A stretch of DNA of 64,000 bases from Candidatus Tayloriibacteriota bacterium (GCA_003151615.1 PLXZ01000001.1:352124-416123), one strand, 5' to 3'; numbered from the stretch's first letter, positions 29,558-51,007 are shown. Notes: a model not told the origin generated them from the sequence alone. Program-made: numbers and translations.

Positions 29558-30376
29558 ATGATGGATTTTGAAACGACATTCATATTTTGGCTTCTTGCTT
29601 TCATTTTCGGCGCAATTATCGGAAGTTTCCTCAATGTCGTCTCTCTGCGTTTTAATACGGGCATGGGCGTCAACGGCCGTTCGAAATGTTTTTCGTGCGG
29701 AAAGGGCCTGGTCTGGCATGAGCTGATTCCCATCGTCAGTTTCGCCGCGCAAAAAGGCCGCTGTAAAAAATGCAAAAGCAAAATTTCGTGGCAATACCCG
29801 ATCGTCGAGTTTTTCTCCGGCGCGATTTTCGTCCTCATCTTCGTGAAGTTTCCGCCGGTCGACGTCGCATCGGCAATTACGACCGTCTTGTATCTTTTCA
29901 TTACTGCGATTCTCATTGTCATTACGGTTTATGACATAAAGCACAAGATAATTCCTGATTCGCTTTCGTACACATTTTCCGCAATAGCTTTGGCGGGTTT
30001 GTTTTTTGGCGGCGTAACGCTTTTCCATATTCCGCTTCTCATAAATCTGTTGGCCGGACCGTTGTGCGCTCTACCGTTTGCCGTTTTGTGGGCAATTTCC
30101 GGCGGTCGATGGATGGGTCTCGGCGACGCGAAATTGATGCTCGGCATCGGCTGGACCCTCGGATTTGTCGCGGCGATTTCGTCGATGGTTTTGGCGTTCT
30201 GGATCGGCGCGGTTGTGTCCGTGGCTTGGATGATGATTGCCTTCAAAAAAGTGAAGGGCAATTACGAAATTCCGTTTGCGCCGTACCTAATTTTGGGCAT
30301 GTACATTGTGCTTTTGACGGGCGTATCCGTCATAGATTTACGGCCGATTCTTGCTATAATAAATGTACAATCATGA
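29558..30376 (+). CDS. pilD: Prepilin peptidase (A24 family)
   Basis: Multi-TM, with the CFSCGKGL...CKKCK zinc-binding tetracysteine region. Confidence 0.7.
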   Translation: MMDFETTFIFWLLAFIFGAIIGSFLNVVSLRFNTGMGVNGRSKCFSCGKGLVWHELIPIVSFAAQKGRCKKCKSKISWQYPIVEFFSGAIFVLIFVKFPPVDVASAITTVLYLFITAILIVITVYDIKHKIIPDSLSYTFSAIALAGLFFGGVTLFHIPLLINLLAGPLCALPFAVLWAISGGRWMGLGDAKLMLGIGWTLGFVAAISSMVLAFWIGAVVSVAWMMIAFKKVKGNYEIPFAPYLILGMYIVLLTGVSVIDLRPILAIINVQS

Positions 30377-31035
30377 TGCGCGGTCTTTCAAAAAACAGCG
30401 GCTTCACCCTCATCGAACTGATGGTCTCTCTGGCCATTTTTGCGTTTATGACGGCGTTTCTGCTGGCAAAGTACGGGACGTTCAATCAGAGCACTTTGGT
30501 CACGAATCTTGCGTACGACGCGGCGCTGACCATCCGAAGCGCGCAGAGTTACGGTTTGAATGTGCAAAATGCCGTTAATTCGCAAGGAACCAATCTAACT
30601 TGTTCGGGTCAGACCGGATATACTTCAGGCAATGCTTGTTTCTATTATGCTTACGGAGTTCATTTTGGAGGGACGACTCCGACTAATCGATTTATTTTAT
30701 TCGTTGATTTAAATACGGGCCAATCGAATTCCGGCGTATATGTTCCGAATGACAGTCCGAATGTTGAAGACATAAGCACTTATAAAATGAATACCGGTTA
30801 CACGATACAAGGCATCTGCGCAATACAAGCGGGCTCGTCCGCGTGCACGCCTCTCAGTTCGCTTGATATTACATTCAAACGACCGAATCCCGATGCTATA
30901 ATTGACGGGACGTTGTTGTCGGATGGAACGACGAAGATAACGAATGCTCCGTACGCGAAGATTACGTTTGTCGCCAATAATACGACGTCGTCGGTTGTCG
31001 TGCAAAGCACCGGCGAAATTTCGGTCGGAAACTGA
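30373..31035 (+). CDS. Minor pseudopilin with a prepilin N-terminal domain
   Basis: Starts at MMRGLSKNSGFTLIELMVSLAIFAF, in an ATGA overlap with the pilD stop. The ORF frame is open from 30064, but that upstream part overlaps pilD. Confidence 0.6.
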   Translation: MMRGLSKNSGFTLIELMVSLAIFAFMTAFLLAKYGTFNQSTLVTNLAYDAALTIRSAQSYGLNVQNAVNSQGTNLTCSGQTGYTSGNACFYYAYGVHFGGTTPTNRFILFVDLNTGQSNSGVYVPNDSPNVEDISTYKMNTGYTIQGICAIQAGSSACTPLSSLDITFKRPNPDAIIDGTLLSDGTTKITNAPYAKITFVANNTTSSVVVQSTGEISVGN

Positions 31036-31733
31036 TGTCAAAATATAAAATGAAAAACACCGCTTCAACTTCGACAACCGCCGGCTTCACCCTCATCGAG
31101 ATCATCGTATCGATGGCGGTTTTCATCGTCGTCGCGACGATTGCCGTTGGGGCATTCCTAAAAATTCTCAGCGCGAACAAGCAGGCGCAGTCAATCGAGA
31201 CGGCCATGAACAATGCCGACTTCGCCCTCGATTCAATGTCCCGCGACTTGCGCGTGGGATACGGGTATACGTGTTACGATGATTACAATTATCCCAACGG
31301 TAATTCTATCTCAATCGGGAAAAATGCTTGTAATTCAATTAATTTGTCTATTTTGTTTGGATCATCGACAAATTTGACGACGTATCCAACGATTGCTTTT
31401 TATTCTTCAGAGAGCCCGAACGGGTGGAGTTGTTCGCAGCCGGCTATTCATGCGTATCGTTACAATCCAAGCACAAAAATACTTGAAAAGTCGGAAGAAA
31501 GCCAATGTAACGACACAGTAATTGGCGACGGTAATTCTCCGTTCGTGCCGCTCACCGCCACAAGTTCCGGTTTTGCCATTCAGACCTTTGGATTTTCTGT
31601 CGGAGGCGTCACTTCGCCTCAACAGCCGAAAGTTCTCATTTACCTGAAGGCGGCGGCCGGATCAAACCTGCAGAACCAAACGTCCTTTACGGTGCAGACA
31701 AGCGTGTCCCAACGCGTCATGAACGGATTATAA
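31035..31733 (+). CDS. Minor pseudopilin (PilW/GspJ-like)
   Basis: AGFTLIEIIVSMAVFIVV prepilin motif. Confidence 0.55.
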   Translation: MSKYKMKNTASTSTTAGFTLIEIIVSMAVFIVVATIAVGAFLKILSANKQAQSIETAMNNADFALDSMSRDLRVGYGYTCYDDYNYPNGNSISIGKNACNSINLSILFGSSTNLTTYPTIAFYSSESPNGWSCSQPAIHAYRYNPSTKILEKSEESQCNDTVIGDGNSPFVPLTATSSGFAIQTFGFSVGGVTSPQQPKVLIYLKAAAGSNLQNQTSFTVQTSVSQRVMNGL

Positions 31734-31736
31734 AAT

Positions 31737-32327
31737 ATGAAAAAAATATGCATACAATCAGGCTTCACTTTGATCGAAACGCTTGTCGCCATTGCCATTC
31801 TCATGGTTGCGATCGCCGGACCGCTTAATATCGCGGAAAAAGGTTTGACGACTGCGGTCGATTCGCGCGACCAAGTCGTGGCGTCGTATTTGGCACAGGA
31901 CATGATGGAATTCGTCAAAAATGTCCGGGATGACAATCTCGAGGCGAGTCCTGTGAGAGCGTGGCTCAATGGGGTAAGTCAATGCACGGTATCTTCGCCG
32001 TGTACTGCGGAAACCGCGACGGGCGATCCGAACAATCTAGGTACGACTGTTTCGTCGGCGCCGGCTTGTAATTTCTTTTCGTATCCGGTGGTTTTGGACA
32101 ATTCATGCCGGCTCTATGTCGACGTCCAACACAATCCGGGCGGCTACTACACATATAATTCGACGGGGAATAATCAGTCGACACAGTTTTACCGGACGTT
32201 TTACATAACTCAGCCGACTGGCGCTGACAGCGATACCGCATTGTTGAACGTCTCGGTATATTGGACAAACGGAACCATCCTCAATCATGTCATTGAGCAG
32301 ACTATGATTTTTAACACAACCAGATAA
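31737..32327 (+). CDS. Minor pseudopilin (PilV/GspI-like)
   Basis: SGFTLIETLVAIAILMVAIAGPL prepilin motif. Confidence 0.55.
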   Translation: MKKICIQSGFTLIETLVAIAILMVAIAGPLNIAEKGLTTAVDSRDQVVASYLAQDMMEFVKNVRDDNLEASPVRAWLNGVSQCTVSSPCTAETATGDPNNLGTTVSSAPACNFFSYPVVLDNSCRLYVDVQHNPGGYYTYNSTGNNQSTQFYRTFYITQPTGADSDTALLNVSVYWTNGTILNHVIEQTMIFNTTR

Positions 32328-32328
32328 T

Positions 32329-32892
32329 ATGAAAACTATGAGCACTTCGCATAGAAAATTTTTGGAAAATCGGGGATACGCGCTTTTGTTCGCGGTTTTG
32401 GTGTCGGCGGTGGTTCTCGGCGTCGGCGTCTCCATTTTGAATATTTCACGCAAGGAAATTCTCCTGACTTCCGGTGCGCAACAGTCGAAGTACGCCCTGT
32501 ATGCGGCTGACGCCGGATATGAATGCGTGCTGTATCAGGATTATCATAAGAATGCTTTTACCAGCACGAGCACGACTGGTTATACTTTTCCTTTATCCGA
32601 GTGCGGGGCTACCTATACCGGAACCACTCCCAATTCCTTCGCTCCGACGGTTACGGAAAGCAATCCGAGCGGAAATGTCTATCAATTCGTCTTCAGTATT
32701 CCGGTTTCGCAGGTAGGCTCGTGCGCAGCGGTGACGCTGACAAAAACGTATGACACCAGTCCGAGTACGGACATAACCGTTTCGACCCAGGTACTCTCCG
32801 ACGGATTCAATGTAGGATGGGAGGCGTCGCCCGGGGATTGCAATACTCCAAATCAGACAAAAGTAGAGCGCGCTCTTCTTGCGACTTATTAA
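32329..32892 (+). CDS. PilX-like pilus assembly protein
   Basis: N-terminal TM helix without the G-F-T-L-I-E motif. Last gene of the pseudopilin operon. Confidence 0.4.
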   Translation: MKTMSTSHRKFLENRGYALLFAVLVSAVVLGVGVSILNISRKEILLTSGAQQSKYALYAADAGYECVLYQDYHKNAFTSTSTTGYTFPLSECGATYTGTTPNSFAPTVTESNPSGNVYQFVFSIPVSQVGSCAAVTLTKTYDTSPSTDITVSTQVLSDGFNVGWEASPGDCNTPNQTKVERALLATY

Positions 32893-39186: not shown

Positions 39187-39258
39187 AGCGGGGTAGAGCA
39201 ACGGTAGCTCGTCAGGCTCATAACCTGAAGATTGCCGGTTCGATTCCGGCCTCCGCAA
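39187..39258 (+). tRNA. tRNA-Met (anticodon CAU; elongator-type, or Ile2 if lysidinylated)
   Basis: Hand-folded cloverleaf with D-stem GAGC/GCTC, anticodon arm TCAGG-CTCATAA-CCTGA and T-arm GCCGG-TTCGATT-CCGGC. The acceptor AGCGGGG/CTCCGCA has an A1:A72 mismatch and no encoded CCA. Confidence 0.55.
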
Positions 39259-39359
39259 CAAGCAAGGTAGATGCGAGTGCCTCATATTCTGAGTCATTTT
39301 CATCGGAAAACATCGAACACAAAAGCAGAGAAAAATCTCTGCTTTTGTGTTACTGGAAG

Positions 39360-40682
39360 TTATTCCGCGATCAGTTTCTTGTCTTTGAGCAGTATCTTGC
39401 TTTTGATGCACGACAGCACTTCTCGCTTTTCTAAAAGAGTCCCGTGCTGAAGCATGTACTTGGCGAATATCTTGATGCTTATGTCCCTATGCTTTTTTGA
39501 TTGCGGCAAATCCTGCTTGAGTACTCCAGTTTGAAAGAGTGCGTATCGCGCGATTTCTTTTTCTAGTTTTTGTCGTAGCTCTGATTTATCCAAACTCATT
39601 GTGTCGATGATAGGCAACATCTCGGCGATCAATATCGTTTCGCTCACAGACTCATTCGGGCAGTCTCGGTTTTTTACTTTGGTACAGCGATAATAGATAT
39701 GCGCGTTCGAGCCGCCGTTTTTGAGTTCCTTGATTTTCTCTTCAGCTGTTATACCCGAATCGCAGTATGCACAGTGGAGCATTCTCGTGAAAGCGAACTC
39801 ACGGCCGTAGGCCTTTTTCTTCTCGACTTTCAGTTTTTCCTGCACTATATCGAAAACCTCTTTTGTAATGATCGGCGTATGTTTGCCAGTATACCAATCG
39901 CCGCTACCCTCGGGATATTCGAAAACACCATAGTAGAAGGACATACGCAATATGCGGTATATATTGCCGAGCGTTACGTACTTGCCGTATCTGTTTTTAA
40001 ATTCCGTTTCCTTGAGCCATTTGCATATCTTTCTGCCGGAGTATCCCTCGTATGCCACCTTGTGAAATATATCCCTTACGATCGGCGCTCTTTGGTGATC
40101 GACAATGGCTTGGCATTTTTCATCCTTATTCTTGCTGTTCAAATACCCAGTCGGTGCCATCGATGGTCTCAGCCCCATCGCCGCACGCGTTCGCAGTCCG
40201 CGTTTGACGTTGATGACCTTGTTATCGTTTTCAAGCTTAGCCTGTGATCCCAGAATCATGAGAAGAAATTTCTCATTTGGATTGTTCGTGAACTTCTGTC
40301 CGCCGTAGGTGCGTATCTCGACCAGTAACTTTTGATCCATGAGGTCAACGATCCTACCGAGGTCGCCCGCGTTGCGACTGATACGATCGGGTGCCCACGT
40401 CAGTATGCCGTTGTACTTGCCCTGCTTCAGCTCCGCAATAATCTCATTGAACACCGGCCGTTGGCCCGCTTCCTTAGCTGAGTGCGATTCCTGTTTTCTG
40501 TCTACTATTTCCAGTCCTTCATTGACCGCCAGTTTCTCCATCTCGGCGATCTGGCTGTCGATTGAAAGTATCTGCTTGTCCTCCTGCTCTGTACTTTTGC
40601 GTGCGTAAAGGCAGTATTTCACCTTTACGGGGACTGCTACTTTGGCCGCAGTTCCCAGTGGCGCTTCTGTTTTATATGTCAT
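39360..40682 (-). CDS. Large serine recombinase (phage-type integrase)
   Basis: 440 aa with an N-terminal resolvase catalytic domain (YARKST...SIDSQ) and a recombinase-domain/zinc-ribbon C-terminal extension. Lies adjacent to tRNA-Met. Confidence 0.7.
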   Translation of the reverse strand: MTYKTEAPLGTAAKVAVPVKVKYCLYARKSTEQEDKQILSIDSQIAEMEKLAVNEGLEIVDRKQESHSAKEAGQRPVFNEIIAELKQGKYNGILTWAPDRISRNAGDLGRIVDLMDQKLLVEIRTYGGQKFTNNPNEKFLLMILGSQAKLENDNKVINVKRGLRTRAAMGLRPSMAPTGYLNSKNKDEKCQAIVDHQRAPIVRDIFHKVAYEGYSGRKICKWLKETEFKNRYGKYVTLGNIYRILRMSFYYGVFEYPEGSGDWYTGKHTPIITKEVFDIVQEKLKVEKKKAYGREFAFTRMLHCAYCDSGITAEEKIKELKNGGSNAHIYYRCTKVKNRDCPNESVSETILIAEMLPIIDTMSLDKSELRQKLEKEIARYALFQTGVLKQDLPQSKKHRDISIKIFAKYMLQHGTLLEKREVLSCIKSKILLKDKKLIAE

Positions 40683-40722
40683 ACATCTTAATCAATGACG
40701 CAGACCCGCCGAGGAGTCTAGG

Positions 40723-40769
40723 CTCCCTAGTTGGTAAACTGTAGGTAACTTATCTTTCAAAAAAGGCCT
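40723..40769. repeat. ~47-bp imperfect direct repeat, copy 1 (core CTCCCTAGTTGGTAAACTGTAGGTAACT)
   Basis: Matches 41576-41622 with 26 of 28 identities in the core and identical spacing to a conserved AAAAAG(G/A)CCT tail. Confidence 0.7.
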
Positions 40770-40848
40770 GAAAATGCTAATATTTTAGGCACGTTATGGC
40801 TAACAAAAATCTCACAAACGAGAGGGTATTCAGAGTAGAAAACGACTT

Positions 40849-41544
40849 ATGAAACTACTATATAAATATATTGTATATACTCTTATTTTAATAGTTTCTT
40901 TTTTGAGTGCATGGTTATTACCTCTAGAGGCAACTATGAAAGGAATAGTTGCGTTCCCTGGAGTGGGTGTCTTATTTCTCGCTCTGTATCAATTATTACG
41001 AGATGGATGGCAACATGATAGAAATTTAAATCTTCAGTATAGACAACAAGATTTTATACTTTCTACTTCGTCACACATAGCAGATGTTGTTTACGACAGG
41101 CACGTCCTTTTCTGTGAGGAATATATTGATAGAGTTCAGAAAGGTAGGCAGGAATTATTAAGAGATGGTGCTTCACCAAAAGCATTGAGTATTGGTGGTG
41201 ATCTTGTAAGGATACGGCAAAAACATTCCGCATGGTTAACAGATAAAATTGAGAACAGCTTGAAACCCTTTGAGCAGGCCTTGATAAAAATTGGTGCTGA
41301 TGAACAACATCTCAGAACGACAGCGACGCAAGACATTGATGATAGAAAGAGAGATATTATCGATAAATTATATAGATCATTTGGGTTGGTATTGGGTCAC
41401 GAGAAACCCATGAATGACATGGAGGCAGAAATTCATATAGATAAAATAATTGATAAAATTAGAGACATTCTCGGGATAAAAACTATGACTGAGTTAAGAT
41501 CAGAGGCGATTTGTGTGACTCTTAATAGATTAAAAGGTCATTGA
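40849..41544 (+). CDS. Hypothetical membrane protein (2 N-terminal TM helices plus a cytoplasmic domain)
   Basis: 231 aa, very AT-rich, flanked by the two direct-repeat copies. Confidence 0.45.
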   Translation: MKLLYKYIVYTLILIVSFLSAWLLPLEATMKGIVAFPGVGVLFLALYQLLRDGWQHDRNLNLQYRQQDFILSTSSHIADVVYDRHVLFCEEYIDRVQKGRQELLRDGASPKALSIGGDLVRIRQKHSAWLTDKIENSLKPFEQALIKIGADEQHLRTTATQDIDDRKRDIIDKLYRSFGLVLGHEKPMNDMEAEIHIDKIIDKIRDILGIKTMTELRSEAICVTLNRLKGH

Positions 41545-41575
41545 TTAGTGTTTATGGAATTTCGCTTGAATAGTC

Positions 41576-41622
41576 TCCCTAGTTGGTAAGCTGTTGGTAA
41601 CTCGACTACACAAAAAGACCTA
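41576..41622. repeat. ~47-bp imperfect direct repeat, copy 2
   Basis: See copy 1. Confidence 0.7.
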
Positions 41623-41736
41623 TCTAAGCTAGGGTACATGGACTGATAGCCAGAATTGAGCTATCATAACCAGTGACAATTTAATATGTTTTTATGGCCT
41701 AACCCTCTTGGTTTTCCAGGAGATATGGTCAAAATT

Positions 41737-41880
41737 CCCGCTAGAGATCAAAAGACTCCTCGTCAGAGTCACTCTAGCGGGTCGTAACTGGAAACGGTTA
41801 CGGGCAGGGCCGAAAGGTTCTGTCGCGATGGCGAGGAGCCTTTTGCTACTCGGTTCTCACCATTCTTAAACCCCGCTAGA
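41737..41880 (+). promoter_or_regulatory. Structured 5' leader with three copies of CCCGCTAGAG/CTCTAGCGGG allowing alternative pairings; the last copy abuts the start codon
   Basis: Direct at 41737-41746, reverse complement at 41773-41782, direct at 41871-41880. There is a nested GACTC/GAGTC hairpin, a CGTAAC/GTTACG hairpin (41785-41804) and a GAAA-tetraloop hairpin CAGGGCC-GAAA-GGTTCTG. Confidence 0.4.
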
Positions 41881-41884
41881 GTTT

Positions 41885-42856
41885 ATGAAAAAATATTTTC
41901 TTATATTCGCATTTATTGCGTTGACCCCATCGATCGCATCCGCCGCTTGGTGGAACCCGCTTTCGTGGGGTATTTTTTCTTCAATACTCCAGGATAGCTC
42001 TCCGAAACAGACCGAGGTTATCACCGCCCATCCGACGAACAATCTTATAGCAACTTCAACTGATCAATTTGCCACGACCACTACTCAGGCTAACATTAGT
42101 ATTTCCTCTACAACCAAAACATCACCTGTAGTTAATACGTCCAAGACGGATTCAAAGACTGTTAAATCTGTTGTTAAGAAACCTCAGCAGACTCAGCCTA
42201 CTGGTGATCTTTGTAATGGTACATATTGGAATGCTTGTCCAACGGGGCAAAAGATGATTTGTCCGCAAACTGGAAATGCTTACTGTCAGCTTCCAGTACA
42301 GCAACCACCGATTGTACCGGCTACTACAACGTTGACAACAACACCCATCGCTACGACTACAGTCGATAAAGGCACTCCTTACAAAGGCCAAGACGGTAAT
42401 TGGTATTACCCGAATGCATATGATGCGAATGGTAAAACCTTGCAGGTTATAGTACCTGATCCAAAAGTGATCGTTACTATCAATCCATCGAGTGTTGATT
42501 ATGGTGGTACAGCGACCCTCAGTTGGACAGCTAATGGAGCTACATCATGTACCCTAAATTCATCCCCAGTGCTACTTGCCCCGACAGGTTCACAGACGAC
42601 GGGAACTCTTTCAACCTCAACAACTTACACCGTCTCTTGTACGGATAAGGATGGAACGGCATCTAGTAGTGTTACGGTAAATGTTCCACAATCCTCTATC
42701 AATTACGCCGCCGCCGCGAAAGATTGTTATGTAGGTGGTGGGACATTATATTCTCAATTTCCTTGCCTTGATGAGAGAAATTATGCAGGCATATTGCCAT
42801 CAAACATATTCCCATATAGTTCTTCCCAGTTCGATGGCCTACCACCTCCTTTTTAA
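41885..42856 (+). CDS. Secreted Thr/Cys-rich protein, paralog 1
   Basis: Signal peptide ...PSIASA, then AAWWNPLSWGIFSS, followed by a Thr-rich low-complexity region and a Cys-containing C-terminal domain. Confidence 0.5.
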   Translation: MKKYFLIFAFIALTPSIASAAWWNPLSWGIFSSILQDSSPKQTEVITAHPTNNLIATSTDQFATTTTQANISISSTTKTSPVVNTSKTDSKTVKSVVKKPQQTQPTGDLCNGTYWNACPTGQKMICPQTGNAYCQLPVQQPPIVPATTTLTTTPIATTTVDKGTPYKGQDGNWYYPNAYDANGKTLQVIVPDPKVIVTINPSSVDYGGTATLSWTANGATSCTLNSSPVLLAPTGSQTTGTLSTSTTYTVSCTDKDGTASSSVTVNVPQSSINYAAAAKDCYVGGGTLYSQFPCLDERNYAGILPSNIFPYSSSQFDGLPPPF

Positions 42857-42883
42857 TTCCACACGGAAGGGGTAATTAAATAT

Positions 42884-43810
42884 ATGAATCAAAAAAATAA
42901 AATGAAAAAATATCTTATCGCACCCATAGCTCTAGCTTTCATTCCCTCAATTGCTTTCGCCGCTTGGTGGAACCCGCTTTCGTGGGGTATTTTCTCATCG
43001 CAAAGCTCTCTACCACCTGTACCAATAGCACAATTGGTAAATTCTACAAGTACATCGCAAAATGATTTTTTTATATCGACAACGACGGTCGCCAATGCGT
43101 CCTCAACTGCCGCAGTGGGAAGCACCACAAATCCTTCCGCTATAATTTATAAACATACGGTCAAAAAATATGTTCTGATACCTATTACCGCAGGCTCGTC
43201 TACGCAGATGGAGACTCCGCCAATTGCTACAACATCATTGACATCTACTGCTCCGTCGCCTTGCTTGCCAGACTATAAATATTCGGCAAATCTTGGCTGT
43301 ATTTCTGCCAATCTGCCCACTGGTTACGTTTCAAGTTCTAATGCCAATTCCTCTAATCAGCAGAACGAAATGCAAGCCGAAATAATGGCGAAAAATAACA
43401 TCAGTGCTTCTACAACAAGTCAGTTTAATTATGTAAATGGAGTGATGGTACCTACAGGAGAAAATACTGGGACACCAAACTATGCATCACAAAATCCTTG
43501 CGATTCAGCACCATTATTTAGTTCTTCGCCAAATTGCGTTCCAGCGAGTGCACAACAGCCGCAATACCCTTCCTGTTCAGATAATGATGGTGATCCTTGT
43601 GAACTTCCAGAAGGAAGTAATTCTTGTCCAAACGGATGGCAAATGACTACGTCAATATATGGTAGCACTTGTTCGCCGCAACCAACCAGTGAGGCGTGCC
43701 TATCAGATGTAGAAAAATGGAATGAATGGGATGGAGCTACTAACCAGCAATTACAAGACGAAGGTGAACGAGACTGTAATGGAACTACAGATGAGAATTA
43801 TTTTAATTAA
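42884..43810 (+). CDS. Secreted Ser/Thr/Cys-rich protein, paralog 2
   Basis: Signal peptide ...PSIAFA, then the identical AAWWNPLSWGIFSS. The C-terminus differs from paralog 1. Confidence 0.5.
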   Translation: MNQKNKMKKYLIAPIALAFIPSIAFAAWWNPLSWGIFSSQSSLPPVPIAQLVNSTSTSQNDFFISTTTVANASSTAAVGSTTNPSAIIYKHTVKKYVLIPITAGSSTQMETPPIATTSLTSTAPSPCLPDYKYSANLGCISANLPTGYVSSSNANSSNQQNEMQAEIMAKNNISASTTSQFNYVNGVMVPTGENTGTPNYASQNPCDSAPLFSSSPNCVPASAQQPQYPSCSDNDGDPCELPEGSNSCPNGWQMTTSIYGSTCSPQPTSEACLSDVEKWNEWDGATNQQLQDEGERDCNGTTDENYFN

Positions 43811-44894
43811 AATCATAAAAAAATATTTGATTGTCGGAATCGTCGCCATATTTTTTCCGATCACAGCGTCGGCGTCAACTGTGTCAACTACCGACCAACT
43901 CGAAGGTATTTTCTATATCTCTCCTGCTTACCTGACTGCGGGCATTAACGACCTTCAGACAAATGTGCCGTCGGGGGATATTGTTGCTCCGCAGACATAC
44001 AGTGTTGACTCCAACCTCGAAGCTACCGGCTCAGTCCCTGAACAAATCATGGAAATTACAAAATCGAAAGGCGTTAAAGTCATGCCTCTCATTACGAATG
44101 GCGATAATTTTAGTCAGTCGTTAATGAACGACTTGCTCGCATCGACAACGGCACAGAACAATGTCATTTCGTACCTCATATCCGAAGCGCAGAATAATGG
44201 CTACATCGGTTGGCAATTCGACTTTGAACATATGGAAGCTAGCGACAGCGAACCGTATACTGCTTTCGTGAAGAAAGCCGCCACGGTACTTCATCAGAAC
44301 AATCTCATTCTATCGGTCACAGCGGTGGCACGTACAGACGATGCTACGTCAACTCCATTTTACCAAAATTGGGCGGGCGCATATGACTATGCTCAATTGG
44401 CAAAGTATGCCGACTTCATCAGTTTAATGACTTACGACGATCCGAAAACAATCGGCCCGACCGCTTCAATCCCTTATGATACGAGTGTTCTGAATTATCT
44501 TTCGGATAAAGTACCGACGGATAAAATATCTCTCGGTATTCCGCTCTACTATTACGGCTGGGACATAACGGCGACTTCTAGTCAGATAGACTTGTTTTAC
44601 AACGTTCCATCTTCCGATTTCGGAGAAGTGATCAACTACGGCGGCACATATACCCGATGGCAATATGACCGAGAAAATTATGGTCTCAACGAACTATTTG
44701 ATTCCGGTCTCGGCTCGCCTTACTCGACCTACTATTTAAACGGTCATGAATATCAAATTTGGTACGACGACTCGACAAGCATGCAAATGAAGCTTGACAT
44801 GGCGCGATTGTTCCATTTACGTGGCTTTTCGGCATGGGCTTTGGGACAAGAATTTCCTGACGTGTGGGATGCTTTTGATAAAAATAATAAATAA
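43791..44894 (+). CDS. GH18-like glycoside hydrolase (chitinase/lysin-like), secreted
   Basis: Start chosen at MRIILIKIIKKYLIVGIVAIFFPITASA (signal peptide). GWQFDFEHME resembles the GH18 DxDxE catalytic strand with an incomplete motif. Confidence 0.4.
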   Translation: MRIILIKIIKKYLIVGIVAIFFPITASASTVSTTDQLEGIFYISPAYLTAGINDLQTNVPSGDIVAPQTYSVDSNLEATGSVPEQIMEITKSKGVKVMPLITNGDNFSQSLMNDLLASTTAQNNVISYLISEAQNNGYIGWQFDFEHMEASDSEPYTAFVKKAATVLHQNNLILSVTAVARTDDATSTPFYQNWAGAYDYAQLAKYADFISLMTYDDPKTIGPTASIPYDTSVLNYLSDKVPTDKISLGIPLYYYGWDITATSSQIDLFYNVPSSDFGEVINYGGTYTRWQYDRENYGLNELFDSGLGSPYSTYYLNGHEYQIWYDDSTSMQMKLDMARLFHLRGFSAWALGQEFPDVWDAFDKNNK

Positions 44895-44898
44895 AAAA

Positions 44899-45336
44899 AT
44901 GAAAAAAATAATCGGAAATGTCGAAGATATTTTATCGAGAAATCGGAAGATTCTTGAGTATAGAAAAACACATATGCAAAAGGAAACCGCTAAAAAATTT
45001 GTTCGTTCGGCTGAAAGAATTAGGCAAATAGAACATTTAAAAAAATGTAATATTCACGATATTCAATATTATGACAAGTGTCCTTCTTGCATAAATTCCG
45101 TAGAGTTAAAAAAATATGCAAAGTTTGTTGAAAATTTGGATCAGAAATCTTTGATGGAGGAAGTCTCTAAAGAAGCTGAGAACAGAAGAAGGGATTTTAT
45201 TTCTACACAAAAGAGAGTTTGTCTTATAAAAATCTTGAAAGAAAATTACGATTTCCCTTTAAAAGAAATCGCGAATTATCTCAAAAGAGATAGAACAACA
45301 GTACGTTATCTTGATAATATGTATTTAAAAAAATAA
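44899..45336 (+). CDS. Small HTH DNA-binding protein
   Basis: 145 aa starting at MKKIIGNV. C-terminal LKEIANYLKRDRTTVRYL is a classic helix-turn-helix. Confidence 0.45.
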   Translation: MKKIIGNVEDILSRNRKILEYRKTHMQKETAKKFVRSAERIRQIEHLKKCNIHDIQYYDKCPSCINSVELKKYAKFVENLDQKSLMEEVSKEAENRRRDFISTQKRVCLIKILKENYDFPLKEIANYLKRDRTTVRYLDNMYLKK

Positions 45337-45418
45337 CTTAAAAACAAAAAAAATATAGGGTTCGGGAGGTTTCTCTAGGGCATAGGATTTAAAAGATTTA
45401 ATTTGAATATATAAAATA

Positions 45419-46552
45419 ATGAAAAACAACATAATAAATACAGTATGTCCTAAATGTAAAAAATCAATATCAATATCAATTGATGAAGTTTTGACAGATC
45501 AAATTCAGGCAAAATTAAGTAAGGATTTTGAGGAGAAAGAAAAAAAGCTAAAGGACTTTCTTGAAAAATCAAACCAAATAATTCTTGCGAAAGAGGAGGA
45601 AAAACTTAAAAAGAAAATCAAAGAAGACGCAGAGAAAGAGGTTAAATCAGAAAAACGTTTTCTAGAGGAACAATTAAAGGAAAAAGATGAAAAGTTAACA
45701 ATGGCAAATAAAGAAAAAAAAGCTTTTGAACTTGAATCAGCTAGAAAAATGGATAAGATTCAAGAAGATGCTTCAAGAAAGGCTACCGAGGCTCAGCAGT
45801 CAATCATTGATCAATTGAATAAGAAACTTTCTGACGCTACAAAAGCGAAAGATGAGTTGGCAAGAAAATTGGAGCAAGGTTCTCAGCAGACACAGGGAGA
45901 AGTACAAGAAATTATCCTAGAGAAACTTCTCGGGAATGAATTTAAATTTGATGATATTTCACCTGTGCCAAAGGGTATAAATGGTGCTGACATAATACAG
46001 ACTGTTAAAAATAGGCATGGTATGGAGTGCGGAAAGATAATATGGGAATCAAAAAAGACAAAGTCGTGGACAAATGGGTGGATACAGAAACTAAAAGATG
46101 ATCAAAGGTCTATTAAGGCCGAAATGGCAGTTATTGTATCTTCAGTACTTCCTGAAGGGGTTGAGGGTGGAACCCTACGAGAGGGTGTGTGGATCTGTGA
46201 TATGAGATCGGTATTATCGATTGCTACGGCATTACGGTACACACTTGAGACAATTTCGAATCAAAAGAGAATGCTTGCTGGGAAAGATGACAAAAAAGAA
46301 ATTCTCTATAATTATCTTACAGGAACAGCTTTTACACACAAAATTCAGGCAATTGTGGAGACTTTCCTGCGCATGGAGAGTGATCTCGTCAAAGAGAAAG
46401 GCATGCAGGAAAAGATATGGGCTGAACGAGAGAAGGGTATTAAAAAAATCAAGTCAAATATAACTGCGATTGTTGTTGATCTCCATGAAAATGTTCCGTT
46501 GCAAAAGATTGATTTTCTAGAATTGCCAGATTCTTCTTCACGGGGAAAATAG
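45419..46552 (+). CDS. Zinc-ribbon / long coiled-coil protein with a C-terminal globular domain (DUF2130-like)
   Basis: 377 aa. N-terminal CPKCKK, then a ~150-aa KE-rich coiled coil, then a C-terminal domain (GEVQEIILEKLL...GADIIQ) reminiscent of a PD-(D/E)xK-like core. Family assignment is from memory. Confidence 0.45.
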   Translation: MKNNIINTVCPKCKKSISISIDEVLTDQIQAKLSKDFEEKEKKLKDFLEKSNQIILAKEEEKLKKKIKEDAEKEVKSEKRFLEEQLKEKDEKLTMANKEKKAFELESARKMDKIQEDASRKATEAQQSIIDQLNKKLSDATKAKDELARKLEQGSQQTQGEVQEIILEKLLGNEFKFDDISPVPKGINGADIIQTVKNRHGMECGKIIWESKKTKSWTNGWIQKLKDDQRSIKAEMAVIVSSVLPEGVEGGTLREGVWICDMRSVLSIATALRYTLETISNQKRMLAGKDDKKEILYNYLTGTAFTHKIQAIVETFLRMESDLVKEKGMQEKIWAEREKGIKKIKSNITAIVVDLHENVPLQKIDFLELPDSSSRGK

Positions 46553-46562
46553 TGGAACAAAA

Positions 46563-47024
46563 ATGAAAAAGAATAAAGACAAAGAAATAACCATCGCCGA
46601 TCTGATTCCGGATATGAAAAAAGATATCCGCGAAATACAAAAGGAGCAATCCGAAGTAAAATTTTATGACAGGCTTCTTGATGAAAATATCGATGATTTG
46701 TCCAAACTAATAGGCAGAAAACTCACCCGGGACGAAAAGAAGAAAGTTTTTCGGATCGTCGATCGCTATAGCCCGAAATACAGCGACGGAGACATCATAG
46801 ATTATTTCCCGTTCGATTTGGCTTGGAGGATATATAAAATCTTGAAGAAGAATGATTTCGACGAAGGGTGCCTTAAGAGCCGGTATTTGAGCGAGGATGT
46901 GTTTGAAATAGCAAAAGAGAATGATCTGAGCTTGGCGGAGGCCGAAGAGCTCCATGAGTTTATTGAAGAGAACGATTACAAGGACGCTTTTAAAGCCTAT
47001 GAGGCTTGGAAGTCGGAGCACTGA
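46563..47024 (+). CDS. Hypothetical acidic protein
   Basis: 153 aa with no recognisable motif. Confidence 0.35.
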   Translation: MKKNKDKEITIADLIPDMKKDIREIQKEQSEVKFYDRLLDENIDDLSKLIGRKLTRDEKKKVFRIVDRYSPKYSDGDIIDYFPFDLAWRIYKILKKNDFDEGCLKSRYLSEDVFEIAKENDLSLAEAEELHEFIEENDYKDAFKAYEAWKSEH

Positions 47025-47070
47025 GAAAAGACTCGAGTAAAGGTTACCCGATCTGAAGATGATATGCCTA

Positions 47071-48357
47071 TTATTCCTTCTCTTGATTTTTAGTCGGTGT
47101 CACCGGCCTGTTCCGGTAACTTTCTTTTGCTTCCGTCCACACCCTCATTATTTCTCCACTAGGCGGATGTTCTCGTCTCGATTCTGCAGGAATACGCCTC
47201 TGTTCGTCTGTCCATTTGCGGTACCATTCGGCGAGATGGGTTAGCATATATCGGTATTCCGCGATACTCGATATCATCTCCGATTCAATTTCCACATTGC
47301 CGTAATATCGCCGGTACGCCGCATCGTCTTCGACCGTAAAGCGTTTTCGCGGCTTGACGATGGGTACGGATATGACGAAAGGTTTCATGTGATCGACGAG
47401 GGGTTTCTGATACTCCACGTCTCTCTCTGGTCCGTAGCGGGAACGCAGTTCGTCAGATATTTCCACGTGACTGTCATCGTTATCCGTGCCGTTTTTGTTC
47501 CAGCCGAGAATTTTCAGCAAAAATTCCCGAGTCCAGACCCCGCGCGTGAAGTGACTTTTCATTTCTCTGATGCTGTCGAGATTGGGGAACCGTCCCGGCC
47601 ACATGATGCGCCGCTCGTCATCCAGGAGCGGGTACGTTCGGAATATGCCGGAAAGGTTTCCTTTGCGGATCTTTTCTTTCAGCCGCATGAGAAGCGAGTC
47701 GGGGCAGACAAGGTTACCGAGAACGATGATACGCGTTCCCTTGCTTCCGAGCGGCAATATCTCGCTCGTGAGTCTCTGCCATGCGTTGTTGCGGTTGACT
47801 TCGTCCTTGGCCGTCGAAGTGTCCTCGATGTCGTCGCAGACAATGAGGTCGGGACGGATTGTCCCATATTTGAGTCCGCGGATGCTCTGTTCGAGAGATA
47901 CCGACTGGATTTTCGATTCATGGTATTCCAATTCAAGCGACATCTTTTTCCACTCGGCCTCATGGTCGGTAAACGGCCCGAAGTCTGATCGCAGAAGAGC
48001 GTTTGAGATAAGCTCGTCCCTGATGCCCACGAAATGACTTTTGGCCTGATCCTGCGTCTGGCTTACGACGACCACGAACTTTTTCTGCGGCTTGCCCAAG
48101 ATCGACCAAAGGACATTGCCCATGTTCATGATGGTCGATTTACCCGACTCCCGAAAGGCCATGACGGCGATAAACTGACGCGATGAATCTTTCAGGATAT
48201 GACCCATCTCCCGATGAAACGGAGCAAGCGGATACGAAAGATGATGCCGCAGATATATGAGGCAGAACCATAACGGATCCTCGTATGCCAATTTTCTTCT
48301 CAAGACCGGATCATCGAGCGCCTGTTTCAATTTTTTGATATCGAATTCATTCGGCAT
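47071..48357 (-). CDS. Phage terminase large subunit-like ATPase
   Basis: Walker A AFRESGKST and Walker B LIVCDDIED. Preceded in transcription order by a small HTH TerS-like gene with overlapping stop/start. Confidence 0.5.
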   Translation of the reverse strand: MPNEFDIKKLKQALDDPVLRRKLAYEDPLWFCLIYLRHHLSYPLAPFHREMGHILKDSSRQFIAVMAFRESGKSTIMNMGNVLWSILGKPQKKFVVVVSQTQDQAKSHFVGIRDELISNALLRSDFGPFTDHEAEWKKMSLELEYHESKIQSVSLEQSIRGLKYGTIRPDLIVCDDIEDTSTAKDEVNRNNAWQRLTSEILPLGSKGTRIIVLGNLVCPDSLLMRLKEKIRKGNLSGIFRTYPLLDDERRIMWPGRFPNLDSIREMKSHFTRGVWTREFLLKILGWNKNGTDNDDSHVEISDELRSRYGPERDVEYQKPLVDHMKPFVISVPIVKPRKRFTVEDDAAYRRYYGNVEIESEMISSIAEYRYMLTHLAEWYRKWTDEQRRIPAESRREHPPSGEIMRVWTEAKESYRNRPVTPTKNQEKE

Positions 48358-48775
48358 GGTCTGGTGTGACTGATGTTCCTGGCGACGGTTCGAGGAATTC
48401 CTTGAAGAGCTTTTCTTCTTCCGGCGTAAGTTCCGCCGTATTTATGATCGGCTTCCGTACCGACTTGCCGCCGTAGCGCGGGTGGTTGTTCTTGAGCCAC
48501 ATGGCGATGGCAGGCATTTTCTTTTCCTTTATGAGGGTGATCAACTGCGACTCGCTCATATCACTCACGAATTCGATGCCTTGGTTGAGAGCGTCCTCGC
48601 TCTCTTTCCGGAACACCTTGTCATCACGTCGCCAACGGTAGTAGGTGTCCCGGGAGATGCTTGCACGTTTGCAAGCGGCTTCAATGATGGGCAGTTCCTT
48701 CAAGGTGGCGACAAGTTTGACTTTGAAATCGGCCTGACGTTCATCAATCGTTTGGTCGTAGGTGTTTTCAGCCAT
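48347..48775 (-). CDS. Terminase small subunit-like HTH protein
   Basis: 142 aa. ACKRASISRDTYYRWRRD HTH, located immediately upstream of the TerL-like gene. Confidence 0.45.
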   Translation of the reverse strand: MAENTYDQTIDERQADFKVKLVATLKELPIIEAACKRASISRDTYYRWRRDDKVFRKESEDALNQGIEFVSDMSESQLITLIKEKKMPAIAMWLKNNHPRYGGKSVRKPIINTAELTPEEEKLFKEFLEPSPGTSVTPDHAE

Positions 48776-50096
48776 GGATTTTTTTCGCCTTAAGACCTGT
48801 TAATTTTTCCCATCGCTTCTTGATCACCTCGGCGTACACGGGTGACTTTTCCATGAGGTAACAGCGTCGGTTCATTTTCGTTGAAGCGATCAGTGTCGAT
48901 CCGCTTCCGCCGAAGGGTTCGATGATGAGGTCATTTCGCTTCGTCAATACCTTTATGTACGGAATGAGAAGCTCTAACGGCTTTGTGCCGAAGATAATTT
49001 CCTGTCCCGACGAAGCCTTGTCCGCGGCGGTGTGGCTGATGAAATCCGTCGGGCATATCTTTTTGCCTTTCTCGTAGCTTTCCCAGTGCGGTTTGCCTAA
49101 CGTGGCAAAGAGCGCGTTTTCATATTCGTTTTGGAACAGTTCTTCCTCGGGTTCTATATTGAGAGCGATTTTCCCGCCGGTACCGACGAGAGCTATGTCA
49201 GTCTTGTTGAAGAACTTGTACTTGGCCGAAAATCCTTGCATGCGGTTACCCACATGCCACGTAATTGTGTTACGATACTTCCAGTGTTTCTCGAGTTCAT
49301 TCCAAATAATTCGAAGATTTTTCGGATTCTCGAAAATAATAATGGAGAAGTCAGGTTTCTGCACTTTTGCGACATTCGCCATCCATAACTCCGTGAAGTT
49401 ATCCGGAAGGATGTCGGTCTCGAGGTATCGGCGATCGCGCTTGTTGCCGAAGCCCGTGACGGCATCGCCTTTCTTCTTTTTACCCTTGAGGTAATCGAGT
49501 ATATATGGCGGGTCGGTGAGACACATGTCGGCTTTCACCCCATCCATTAGTTTGAGCGTATCGGCTTCGACAGTGCTGTCACCGCACATGAGGCGCGAGC
49601 CGTTCAGGTCGTACACGTCTCCCTTTTTGATGTCAATGCTATCGATCTTTAGCTTTTTAAGCTCTTTTTCGAGATCAAACTGCTCGGGCGTTTCTTCGAT
49701 TGCGAATATATCGTCGAGGTCTTCCGACGAGAAGCCGATGCCCGACAGGAATGTTTCGTCGAATTTTGCGAGCAGATCCCAGTCAAATTCGCCCGTGTTT
49801 TTGTTGAGGCGAATATTCAACTCCTTTTCCTTTTCGATGTCGGGAATGTTGATATATACGACTGGAACTTCGGTGATGCCGAGCTCCTTGATTACTGACA
49901 AACGAAAATGTCCGCCGATGACGACACCCGCGCGTTCCGGCGCGGAGTTGACGAGAAGCGGATCGACGAGGCCGAAACGCTTGATACTTTCTTTCAACTG
50001 GTCACTGGCTTCCTTGTCCCATTTTCTAGGGTTATACGAAGCCACTTTTAATACGTCGACTGAGACATGCTCAATTTTGATTTTTTCTGAATTCAT
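48768..50096 (-). CDS. ParB-like nuclease domain fused to a DNA methyltransferase (DPPY motif)
   Basis: N-terminal ParB/Srx fold (VVIGGHFRLSV) and a C-terminal amino-methyltransferase with CLTDPPY and FGGSGST motifs. Confidence 0.6.
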   Translation of the reverse strand: MNSEKIKIEHVSVDVLKVASYNPRKWDKEASDQLKESIKRFGLVDPLLVNSAPERAGVVIGGHFRLSVIKELGITEVPVVYINIPDIEKEKELNIRLNKNTGEFDWDLLAKFDETFLSGIGFSSEDLDDIFAIEETPEQFDLEKELKKLKIDSIDIKKGDVYDLNGSRLMCGDSTVEADTLKLMDGVKADMCLTDPPYILDYLKGKKKKGDAVTGFGNKRDRRYLETDILPDNFTELWMANVAKVQKPDFSIIIFENPKNLRIIWNELEKHWKYRNTITWHVGNRMQGFSAKYKFFNKTDIALVGTGGKIALNIEPEEELFQNEYENALFATLGKPHWESYEKGKKICPTDFISHTAADKASSGQEIIFGTKPLELLIPYIKVLTKRNDLIIEPFGGSGSTLIASTKMNRRCYLMEKSPVYAEVIKKRWEKLTGLKAKKIHG

Positions 50097-50456
50097 TATG
50101 TTTAATTTATGAAGAACTGATTAATACTGCAGTTTTTTGCAAAGCAAAAAAGCGCCCAGTTTTTGATTGCGGGACGGATTGGTTGATGGATAACATCCGG
50201 TCACCTTGTACAGGTTATGAACCCTATTCGGTTGTTCTTCTTTTCAGAAGATTTTGATCAGCTTTTACAAGCAAATCGGAGATGCGCGAGAGAGTGGAAC
50301 CAGACCCTTTTCAGGAATCCCTCTCAGCCTTTATCAGGCATTTTTCCGCTGTCATGCGGAGGAATTGATGTAAATGATATATCGTCCGTGGAAAAAGTCA
50401 ATATCACTGTCTCTTATGGATGTGAATATCTATCGTGGTGTATAATTTGTTGTGTC

Positions 50457-50606
50457 ATGAAAAATCCAAAGGCAAAAAAACCAAAAAAATATACGGAAGC
50501 GCAAAAAGCATTTATTGACGATGCGGCTCAGCAGTATGCTGACCTTATTGTGCAAGTCATTGAACAAAATCACGCTGCTAAAAAAGTCGAAAAGGAGGGA
50601 GAATAA
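50457..50606 (+). CDS. Possible small basic protein (49 aa)
   Basis: MKNPKAKKPKKYTEAQKAFIDDAAQQYADLIVQVIEQNHAAKKVEKEGE, the only protein-like part of the 50217-50606 ORF. Confidence 0.25.
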   Translation: MKNPKAKKPKKYTEAQKAFIDDAAQQYADLIVQVIEQNHAAKKVEKEGE

Positions 50607-50844
50607 GACACAGGGTAGAGGTGCCTGAGTGCTGTCTTAAATGTCTTATTCGCATATGGTTGAGCCATGCTTCGACACGCTTGAAACACTTGTCTTATTC
50701 GTAAATCGGAAAAATGACCCCCTATGCGTCTGGGTCATCGTACCTATTATGGTGTCGCTTAAAAACCCTTACACGGTCTTGCATCACTCCGTCTGAGACG
50801 CGTCAGGGCAACAAGTCAAGACGGTTTTGGAACCGCTGCAAAAA

Positions 50845-50866
50845 AGTCCCAGAAACGGGGCTTTTT
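50845..50866 (+). terminator. Intrinsic terminator-like hairpin (GTCCC-AGAAAC-GGGGC followed by TTTTTT) inside the nrdD leader
   Basis: Stem-loop plus T6, preceded by an A-tract, located 140 nt upstream of the nrdD start. Confidence 0.4.
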
Positions 50867-51007
50867 TGTTGGTTGAAAGTTTGCCTCAACTCGTGCTTGT
50901 CACTGCCAGAGGGCGTTATCCACATATTTCATGATTGCGAAACATTGAAACTAGAGCGATAATGGAACAATATCACTCGTTTAATAAATTTTTTTAATAA
51001 TGCACAC

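Follow-up and report, generated by a model that had tools for sequence, protein, structure and literature searches.

Phage-inducible chromosomal islands (PICIs, including the SaPIs) are integrated elements of ~10–15 kb that carry an integrase, one or more terminase-subunit genes with the potential to redirect packaging, and accessory or defence cargo, and have no capsid, tail or lysis genes. The PLEs of Vibrio cholerae (PMC6002521) are satellites with an anti-phage role that likewise have no structural genes, and which integrate and excise by means of a large serine recombinase (LSR). LSRs also mobilize the SCCmec-type cassettes (CcrAB), in which a highly variable cargo rides on a chassis without self-transfer genes. 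Their insertion uses a short common core, and the target is the 3′ terminus of a conserved housekeeping gene. All three descriptions fit, in part, an island in a 64,000-nucleotide stretch of DNA from Candidatus Tayloriibacteriota bacterium (GCA_003151615.1 PLXZ01000001.1:352124–416123; the whole stretch is termed the window). The window also forms part of a 333-kb metagenome contig (ENA ERZ27254241, k141_1209207). The island spans positions 39263–50815 (11,553 bp) and, as in PICIs, has its integrase, here an LSR, at one end, a total length of 11.55 kb and no virion genes.

The island shares its backbone with a family of related loci: an LSR at one end, a divergent LOOT RNA usually adjoining it, variable cargo, and at the far end an overlapping operon (the module) encoding a ParB–DNA methyltransferase fusion (ParB-MTase), a helix–turn–helix (HTH) protein and a homolog of the large terminase subunit (TerL). 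In the window these components are:

39360–40682, minus strand: large serine recombinase (integrase), 440 residues, intact (Pfam, PHROG)
41696–41824, plus strand: LOOT RNA (Rfam RF03000; 82.4 bits against a gathering threshold of 46.4, E = 1e-14, model positions 1–121 of 121)
47071–48357, minus strand: TerL-like packaging ATPase, 428 residues, short form without nuclease domain (PHROG, NCBIfam, structural model)
48347–48775, minus strand: HTH protein, 142 residues, possible small terminase subunit (TerS), overlapping both neighbors (PF13022, 9.5e-5, below cutoff; PHROG TerS, 1.3e-5)
48768–50096, minus strand: ParB_N–N6/N4 DNA methyltransferase fusion, 442 residues, with a DPPY motif (Pfam; E = 1e-180 to 1e-250 across loci)

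An earlier reading made from the sequence alone (the sequence-only reading) had proposed one integrated element, with a large serine integrase beside tRNA-Met. That view was upheld and every open reading frame (ORF) it listed was confirmed at its coordinates; the LOOT RNA was absent from it.

Homologs of the window genes come almost entirely from genomes of Patescibacteria, the candidate phyla radiation (CPR). The TerL-like protein alone has 1349 homologs at E ≤ 1e-5, and 244 at E ≤ 1e-30 among 50%-identity representatives. From genome and viral collections 92 family loci were gathered, and were compared with a control set of 80 loci (1.03 Mb). Of the 76 loci that extend far enough upstream, 73 have ParB-MTase and HTH genes ahead of TerL. 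An LSR of the window type is present in 51 of the 92 loci; among the 44 loci that reach 17 kb or more, 32 have one no further than 10 kb away. No control locus contains an LSR, module genes or LOOT. The rules of orientation are constant, and the genes flanking the window island are shared by none of the module loci. Several metagenome-assembled genomes hold two or three copies of the module, and many complete or near-complete genomes have it in their chromosome. In pairs of related copies (L041/L051 and L049/L050) the cargo has been swapped between a retained LSR and a retained module. In two Gracilibacteria loci (L062, L063) the whole unit is an uninterrupted 5.3-kb block running from ParB-MTase to the LSR stop codon. 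A large subclass of LSR islands bears the module at the LSR-distal end, without virion genes. The best reading of the window island, which we hold tentatively and at a little less than an even chance, is that it behaves as a phage satellite carried in the capsids of a helper phage.

The compact elements also share a conserved 18-nt motif, AGCA(G)ATGTCGTAGGAAAA, 40–50 nt upstream of the point where their homology starts (L062, ~7440; L063, ~7440; L071, ~7390). It may represent an end or operator sequence.

The three minus-strand module genes overlap by 8 and 11 nt. ParB-MTase is the best conserved of them, and its full-length homologs (~30% identity) are found in 229 phage records; in phages such homologs stand upstream of TerS and TerL. 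In the Lactobacillus prophage Lj771, a temperate siphophage, the order is MTase–TerS–TerL–portal–protease–scaffold; the module is identified as the head of a phage morphogenesis operon. Its genes are homologs of those with which such operons open in tailed phages, and it always ends after TerL. In one branch of the family (L030, L052, L061, L077, L172, L176, L182, L185, L188, L249) the region of the ParB-methylase is matched twice, in separate pieces; L249 has two genes called there, and only the second has a Pfam MTase match.

The TerL-like protein was matched by PHROG 38 (E = 9.5e-40) and, below the cutoff, by the NCBIfam T7-type TerL (E = 9e-19), with no match in Pfam. Terminase profiles cover residues ~12–280 only, which is the ATPase region. 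The window protein has the Walker A motif AFRESGKST and the Walker B motif RPDLIVCDDIED; across 34 homologs this Walker A, the Walker B consensus RPDLIxCDDxED and LGNL are invariant, and the alignment has 36 invariant columns. Its AlphaFold model (pLDDT 87.5) has few strands and long helices, and Foldseek highlights the terminases of PhiV-1 (T7-like), T4, HK97, P74-26, D6E and Sf6 as the best PDB matches, over the ATPase part. The Walker motifs, the invariant columns and the confident model suggest that the ATPase is active. By the PHROG, NCBIfam and Foldseek matches the enzyme is a terminase ATPase and not a P4-type primase/helicase, the alternative raised in the sequence-only reading. That reading's call of a TerL-like protein with Walker A and B motifs holds for the ATPase only; no C-terminal RNaseH-like nuclease was detected in the window protein by a Terminase_6C scan, in the alignment, with an HMM of the long-form nuclease, or in the model.

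The loss is confined to part of the family. Nearly all matches in an exhaustive TerL search span query residues ~10–285 only, and most of the subjects are 470–570 residues long. The alignment diverges past residue ~285, where a 540-residue relative (P0120) runs on into a C-terminal region with a weak Pfam Terminase_6C match. Among ten family members of ~490–555 residues tested, Terminase_6C was found with E = 1e-6 to 1e-8 in eight and more weakly, below the Pfam cutoff, in two. The nuclease HMM matches intact long-form relatives with E = 1e-38 to 1e-74, has no match in the window protein, and sorts the family cleanly: long forms carry the nuclease and short ones lack it. Past the sequence REYLLK, the family as aligned over the 34 homologs has a brief linker, then a small Q-PL-x-QM-x-F-I motif, and its tail is variable. 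Judged by these comparisons, the nuclease has been lost in the clade of the window protein and kept in more distant family members. Such a natural series of full-length and nuclease-less TerLs within one architecture offers a test of a packaging ATPase without its nuclease. In one locus (L172, 3014–6318) the HTH gene and the LSR are separated by a tandem pair of long-form TerL genes, both of full length.

The HTH protein lies directly upstream of TerL, overlapping the TerL start. It is all-helical (model pLDDT 74.8, built with database homologs). The closest fold match, PDB entry 2ao9 from phage phBC6A51, is not significant (E = 0.38), and Sf6 TerS follows with E = 4; 2ao9 is regarded as a small terminase. 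A profile search against PDB sequences gave no match. Because similarity in sequence and fold is weak, the assignment as TerS, also made in the sequence-only reading, is positional: the placement directly upstream of TerL is firm, the resemblance to TerS is not.

A module that equals the 5′ end of a typical morphogenesis operon, a TerL without nuclease and a mosaic base composition could all be expected of a full prophage that has decayed by loss of its capsid, tail and lysis genes, one of the two origins suggested from the sequence alone. No portal, major capsid or tail genes were found in the island or its flanks (22–59 kb), in agreement with the sequence-only reading; the DNA just outside the range given there is housekeeping on both sides, with MurB, SecA, Obg, pilins, LigA and GatA to the left and NrdD/G, NifS/U and others to the right. 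TerL-like is not encoded beside portal or capsid genes. The same cut directly after TerL recurs in 92 loci from all major classes of Patescibacteria, with module genes that are intact and overlapping and catalytic motifs that are invariant, and the 120 cargo ORFs of 31 elements include no recurrent family of head, portal or tail proteins. The island also has precise ends, in common with a different island. Because the truncated gene set recurs with invariant motifs and no recurrent virion family, decay of a prophage is rejected as hardly credible.

The ends of the island were defined by comparison with a second island at the same tRNA-Met (L258–L260). The relevant features in the window are:

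39187–39259, plus strand: tRNA-Met (CAT), the integration target, its 3′ end abutting the island (ARAGORN; Rfam tRNA, 63 bits; tRNA and flank conserved in L258–L260)
39255–39262, no strand: proximal common core GCAACAAG, the integrase-side att junction, made of the last 5 nt of the tRNA plus AAG (same 8-mer at both ends in the window and in L260)
39263–39297, no strand: element-side arm of the proximal att site, CAAGGTAGATGCGAGTGCCTCATATTCTGAGTCAT (conserved after tRNA-Met in L260; unique in the window)
39316–39351, minus strand: terminator-like hairpin 3′ of the recombinase gene (16-pair stem followed by a T run; 34 nt identical in L260)
50711–50807, no strand: conserved distal end block, of which the element-side arm GAGACGCGTCAGG is a part (74.5% identity with the far end of the L258–L260 island, which is unrelated otherwise)
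50808–50815, no strand: distal common core GCAACAAG, the nrdD-side att junction (comparison with L260)
50838–50868, plus strand: rho-independent terminator just outside the island (from sequence; a positional equivalent of different sequence in L260)

The L258–L260 island has the same flank as the window (w247–GatA–GatC–LigA–pilin) and an LSR (P0243) that is 91% identical to that of the window. It is only 6.2 kb long and contains other genes, with neither module nor LOOT. Homology between the two islands is limited to the LSR end (window 40753–39185, 82% identity) and a 106-bp block at the far end (50711–50815). Because sequence is conserved inside the GCAACAAG repeats of both islands and diverges beyond the distal one, the island is placed at 39263–50815, in correction of the ends of 39360 and 50096 given in the sequence-only reading. 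Beyond the distal repeat, the two loci each have a rho-independent terminator at the same position; that of the window presumably is the displaced terminator of tRNA-Met. As read from these junctions, the LSR inserted the island directly after tRNA-Met, between the tRNA and its terminator, and the empty site would have the order tRNA-Met–ACAAG–terminator–nrdD promoter. The predicted attB junction is …GGCCTCCGCAACAAG / TCAAGACGGTTTTGG…, and the reconstructed attP junction is predicted to read …GTCAGGGCAACAAG / CAAGGTAGATG…, or in longer form …GAGACGCGTCAGGGCAACAAG / CAAGGTAGATGCGAGTGCC…. A common core of 8 bp is within the range reported for other large serine integrases.

Longer repeats were sought between the island ends, and no direct or inverted repeat reached a match score of 11 or more, the actual core being 8 bp. 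An approach to the empty site through nrdD relatives was abandoned: the closest are 74–79% identical and keep the nrdDG–nifSU synteny but not the tRNA side, so that the comparison with relatives proposed for attL and attR succeeded through the LSR homolog at the same site and not through an empty site. The proximal arm (consensus YAAGGNNGATGYG) also lies directly 3′ of tRNA-Arg in L256 and, in part, 3′ of tRNA-Glu in L255. As a general feature behind all LSR genes it was rejected, being common only to L256, L255 (partially) and L258–L260. At ~100 bp, the distal end block is far longer than an att arm requires. It contains a conserved hairpin (ATGACCC…GGGTCAT), overlaps a 51-codon ORF and has no Rfam match. 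A small RNA, a site bound by a directionality factor and a promoter are among its possible identities.

The LSR itself has the domains Resolvase (PF00239, 8e-22, residues 25–170, with the YARKST motif visible in translation), Recombinase (PF07508, 6.5e-16) and, with 24.4 bits just below the cutoff of 25.3, Zn_ribbon_recom (PF13408, 3.9e-5); its homologs carry all three. It matches the PHROG 95 integrase with E = 1e-59. The best NCBIfam match is CcrB (1e-31), although its 110 bits against a cutoff of 900 do not make it a Ccr equivalog. The protein is predicted to perform both integration and excision of the island. Its homologs number at least 8000 at E ≤ 1e-30 and include more than 120 clusters at 74–97% identity, making the LSR far commoner and better conserved than the packaging module. 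Five homologs on long contigs were sampled: in all five the module is absent within 10 kb, and a tRNA on the opposite strand lies downstream of the LSR stop codon at a distance of 144 bp to 6 kb. More than 15 loci have an opposite-strand tRNA behind the LSR. A minimal unit of ~2 kb, L256, consists of a Xis-like HTH_17 protein, a 108-residue ORF and the LSR, and ends at tRNA-Arg. The LSR/att chassis is common in Patescibacteria and, because it occurs without the module in these five homologs and in L258–L260, the module is an optional part of LSR islands and not their defining core. Compact tRNA-targeting LSRs of 440 residues, many of them 75–97% identical at different tRNAs, could help in the study of target choice.

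Two further observations concern recombinases. In six loci (L009, 5927–7504; L010, 6064–7074; L013; L015; L023; L026) a second, distinct serine recombinase (~525 residues; E ~1e-50 to the window LSR) lies 0.7–3 kb upstream of ParB-MTase on the same strand, and L009 and L010 also have the usual LSR downstream. In L054 (~16805–16942), 30 nt from the 3′ part of tRNA-Gly are duplicated at a point ~34 nt into the element, beside the intact tRNA; on the strength of this duplicate, some lineages of the window-type LSR may integrate within the tRNA gene and bring a replacement 3′ end.

The frequency of LSR homologs without a module raises the alternative that two separate elements, a small LSR element and a ParB-MTase/HTH/TerL element, have come to lie side by side at a tRNA hotspot. 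L002, in which the module has no LSR within 10 kb, and L035 and L038, which share only a 4.1-kb block from LOOT to TerL, would suit this explanation. It is nevertheless very improbable: the att junctions of the window enclose LSR and module as one, the distal block being shared with a module-less island; the LSR accompanies the module in most long loci and in none of the controls; the orientation rules are constant; and L062 and L063 share the one unbroken block described above.

LOOT was found by way of a conserved intergenic stretch in family loci. The motif is Rfam RF03000, described by Weinberg et al. in 2017 (PMC5737381) and filed in Rfam as an sRNA of unknown role. A covariance model built in this study from eight copies scores the window copy at 146.6 bits and identifies 38 copies among the 92 family loci, with none in canonical-terminase or control loci. 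Over 33 copies, pairing holds in 96.4% of cells and compensatory double changes occur at 36 of the 40 pairs, whereas slid partners reach 31–42% only. Of the 38 copies, 35 stand between LSR and module and point away from the LSR (L061, L065 and L180 differ in arrangement), and the gap to the LSR is often as small as 100–160 nt. An ORF on the same strand follows ~35–80 nt downstream (55 nt in the window), and about 25 of 36 such ORFs begin with a signal peptide or membrane helix, their N-termini having been judged by eye and without a predictor. LOOT co-occurs with both the long and the short form of TerL. It also lies beside the LSR in a locus without visible module, whose contig ends ~1 kb further. 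Because of these two observations LOOT is regarded as part of the LSR-side backbone. By its placement it resembles a cargo-operon leader or first transcript rather than a packaging RNA; most likely it would act in cis on the cargo transcript or control the divergent recombinase region. The orphan RNA thereby gains a genomic context, divergent from a serine recombinase and at the head of a cargo operon.

Three other roles for LOOT were considered and rejected. A motor RNA resembling the phi29 pRNA does not fit its occurrence with nuclease-bearing TerLs and beside an LSR without visible module. A programmable guide is not suggested by two hairpins with GAAA-type tetraloops and an invariant loop, CUCGUCA. 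A leader of a single gene family is contradicted by downstream ORFs that fall into more than 20 unrelated clusters.

The plus-strand cargo of the window (40849–47024) has a GC content of 0.27–0.46, against about 0.50–0.55 in the flanks and module, bearing out the sequence-only reading's division into AT-rich cargo and GC-normal module. It comprises, with one further gene beyond the module:

40849–41544, plus strand: 231-residue membrane protein between the recombinase and the conserved spacer (ORF; no family match in Pfam, PHROG and NCBIfam scans)
41573–41690, no strand: conserved spacer (DNA matches in nine loci: L009, L010, L014, L017, L020, L021, L031, L050, L051)
41885–43810, plus strand: two paralogous secreted proteins of 323 and 308 residues (shared N-terminus AAWWNPLSWGIFSS; reciprocal phmmer matches; no Pfam or PHROG family)
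43722–44894, plus strand: GH18 glycosyl hydrolase with an N-terminal membrane anchor (Pfam Glyco_hydro_18, 1.9e-24; also beside TerL-like in a 79% relative, L043)
44794–45336, plus strand: small HTH protein resembling sigma-70 region 4 (Sigma70_r4, 1e-5; gene call in L001; 145 residues as called in the source record)
45419–46552, plus strand: DUF2130 protein with an N-terminal zinc ribbon and a coiled coil (PF09903, 8.7e-61)
46563–47024, plus strand: 153-residue acidic protein, convergent with TerL-like (homologs at the same position in L002, L009, L019, L026, L057)
50457–50606, plus strand: 49-residue basic protein, divergent from the module (gene call; 43% identical to an ORF at the same place in L009)

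In relatives the conserved spacer lies between LOOT and the recombinase start, and the match abuts that start in L010, L021 and L031. It contains a promoter-like sequence, TGGACT-17-TATCAT, at 41639–41667, so called from its position only, and is probably a divergent promoter region. The 153-residue acidic protein is a semi-conserved companion of the module. The secreted paralogs have a signal peptide and the AAWWNPLSWGIFSS segment in common, and the 5′ coding region of each contains the identical hairpin CCCGCTTTCGTGGG (at 41956 and 42973, respectively); the ORFs downstream of LOOT in L021 and L050 begin with similar N-termini. A few kilobases to the left of the island (29558–32892) lies a cluster of a prepilin peptidase and several pilin-like (N_methyl) genes, which is kept in L259.

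Across the family, the cargo survey covered the 120 ORFs between module and LSR in 31 elements. Reverse transcriptases recur (six of 31 elements), as does bAvd (three of 31), so that diversity-generating retroelements (DGRs) travel on module-bearing islands. Other recurrent cargo includes type IIG/III restriction–modification (RM) systems and methylases, AbiEii-like, McrB-like, SNF2 with PLD, KAP NTPase, E2/ThiF and trypsin-like proteins; Shedu SduA_C, Schlafen AlbA_2 and surface or secreted proteins are also found. The islands hence shuttle RM systems, DGRs and surface proteins among the ultra-small, mostly uncultured Patescibacteria, whose mobile elements are poorly charted and which now have a recurrent island type with exact att junctions at a tRNA 3′ end.

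A cargo so rich in defence genes (type IIG/III RM, DGR reverse transcriptase with Avd, AbiEii-like, McrB-like, SNF2 with PLD, Shedu, Schlafen) suggests the main rival explanation, in which the packaging-like operon is itself an anti-phage or interference cargo. The nuclease-less TerL and its HTH partner would be decoy or poison subunits that block the packaging motor or terminase of an infecting phage, the methyltransferase would serve self-marking or anti-restriction, and the LSR island would be an SCCmec-like cassette moving by other routes. An ATPase kept while the nuclease is lost fits a dominant-negative role, the LSR/att chassis exists without the module, and terminase-directed interference is used by known satellites (PMC9618062). 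Three results point the other way: a PADLOC search of TerL-like and the HTH protein, in which ParB-MTase was not included, gave only chance-level fragments (E ~0.007); many family members have a complete, nuclease-bearing TerL, as expected of a working terminase rather than a decoy; and the 5.3-kb Gracilibacteria units consist of module and LSR only, as if the module serves the element. We consider interference unlikely as the function of the operon.

Under the preferred reading, that of a satellite carried in helper-phage capsids, the LSR would excise the island as a circle, the TerS-like HTH protein would mark island DNA, and the TerL ATPase would dock on the helper portal and pump this DNA into helper capsids. 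The methyltransferase would methylate the island DNA beforehand, allowing it to survive restriction in the next host. Because the TerL of the window clade has lost its nuclease, the cutting activity would have to be supplied by the terminase of the helper or by a different nuclease, for which the ParB/Srx-like domain is a possible candidate. Counted in favor are that the operon comes from phage and is strictly conserved, that many members have complete terminases, that minimal elements are composed of module and LSR alone, and that 23 family members are present in IMG/VR. One of the latter, L248 (IMGVR_UViG_3300009694_001303; 12,396 bp), has a 438-bp terminal overlap (1–438 and 11959–12396, 93% identity) and starts and ends in the HTH gene, implying a circular or tandem unit of ~11,958 bp. 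It is possibly a free or tandem form. Other than this imperfect overlap, no terminal repeats were found in whole-contig loci. The cargo of L248 comprises a type IIG-like methylase, Bro-N, Schlafen AlbA_2 and RNase H.

Several points weigh against a satellite. No helper phage has been identified, and packaging and excision are inferred. Scans with Pfam, PHROG, NCBIfam and PADLOC found no primase, helicase or Rep in any island ORF, and the first three found no recognizable repressor or activator in the island, in both respects unlike known satellites. From its sequence and model, the window TerL is predicted to be unable to cut DNA alone, and the TerS assignment is weak. Because the LSR/att chassis works without the module, the module could be cargo with another role. 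Membership in IMG/VR may merely reflect the terminase marker genes, and the L248 overlap, being imperfect, could equally come from tandem copies. The dyad symmetry of the reconstructed attP (10 matches, against 11.6 ± 1.1 in a shuffled null) is not above chance.

The first of these points would also suit a non-viral DNA transaction of the island, such as keeping or segregating the excised circle, preparing DNA for uptake or export, or passing it from cell to cell in these episymbionts. A ParB-like domain, together with one protein that binds DNA and one that translocates it, would have been exapted from phage for this purpose. In addition to the lack of an identified helper and of replication genes, the relation of the ParB_N domain to Noc/Spo0J/ParB, the strictly conserved ATPase motifs and the chromosomal location of the module in many complete or near-complete genomes are compatible with such a role. 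This is nonetheless improbable, as phage packaging operons show the same gene order and the same three families, the fusion partner of ParB_N is a methylase and not the HTH and dimerization domains of partition ParB, and no membrane channel, relaxase or coupling protein recurs among the 120 cargo ORFs.

Carriage in helper capsids, the reading preferred here, can be extended to phylum-wide satellites of Patescibacteria with a tRNA-targeting LSR chassis, a packaging motor of their own made of TerS-like protein and TerL (cut down to an ATPase without nuclease in one large clade), and LOOT either controlling a switch between cargo and recombinase or aiding packaging. This broader proposal is possible but doubtful. 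If true, these would be the first satellites described for CPR bacteria, and a main vehicle for the exchange of defence and cell-surface genes among episymbionts.

Set beside known systems, the island departs from each in a different respect. PICIs have Stl/AlpA-type regulators, a primase–replicase with ori, and only TerS (or Rpp/Ppi). None of these was found in the window island; in Pfam, PHROG and NCBIfam scans no Stl/AlpA lies beside the integrase, whose neighbors are the membrane protein and LOOT. The PICI-type label of the sequence-only reading accordingly fails in most respects, having neither these regulators nor a primase–replicase to support it. The window island in turn differs from PICIs in its TerL homolog, ParB-methylase, LOOT RNA, large serine recombinase and host phylum. 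PLEs (PMC6002521) have no terminase genes, possess their own RepA replication module and are restricted to V. cholerae and ICP1; they have no sequence relationship to the window island past the LSR superfamily. General Pfam and PHROG scans, which included no PLE-specific profiles (RepA, NixI, TcaP), found no replication or nicking genes in the island. Unlike SCCmec, the island targets a tRNA 3′ end and not rlmH, has a single LSR, and carries a packaging-like operon and a LOOT RNA.

Temperate siphophages such as Lj771 share the order of ParB-type DNA methyltransferase, TerS and TerL, but there portal, protease, scaffold and capsid follow TerL, whereas the window operon ends at this point with a nuclease-less TerL. 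The cf-PICIs and marine VEIMEs (PMC9618062) may carry terminase homologs or 'motor-like ATPases', and some have serine recombinases and RM/Abi cargo. In contrast to the window island, cf-PICIs encode capsid, portal and connector proteins, and VEIMEs are defined by recovery from virus particles while the window family is known from genes alone. The phi29-type gp16 and pRNA resemble the island in combining a nuclease-less packaging ATPase and a structured RNA of ~130 nt in one element. However, LOOT also accompanies nuclease-bearing TerLs, the island is without a terminal-protein system, and the fold match of TerL-like to phi28 gp11 is weaker than to the TerLs of T7, T4 and HK97. A literature search, incomplete in coverage, returned no description of the element family, of CPR elements combining serine recombinase and terminase, or of the LOOT context, and the family is apparently undescribed so far. 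As far as its genes indicate, what is new is the combination, in which an LSR cassette and a phage-satellite-like island, two kinds of element already known separately, appear to be joined in one.

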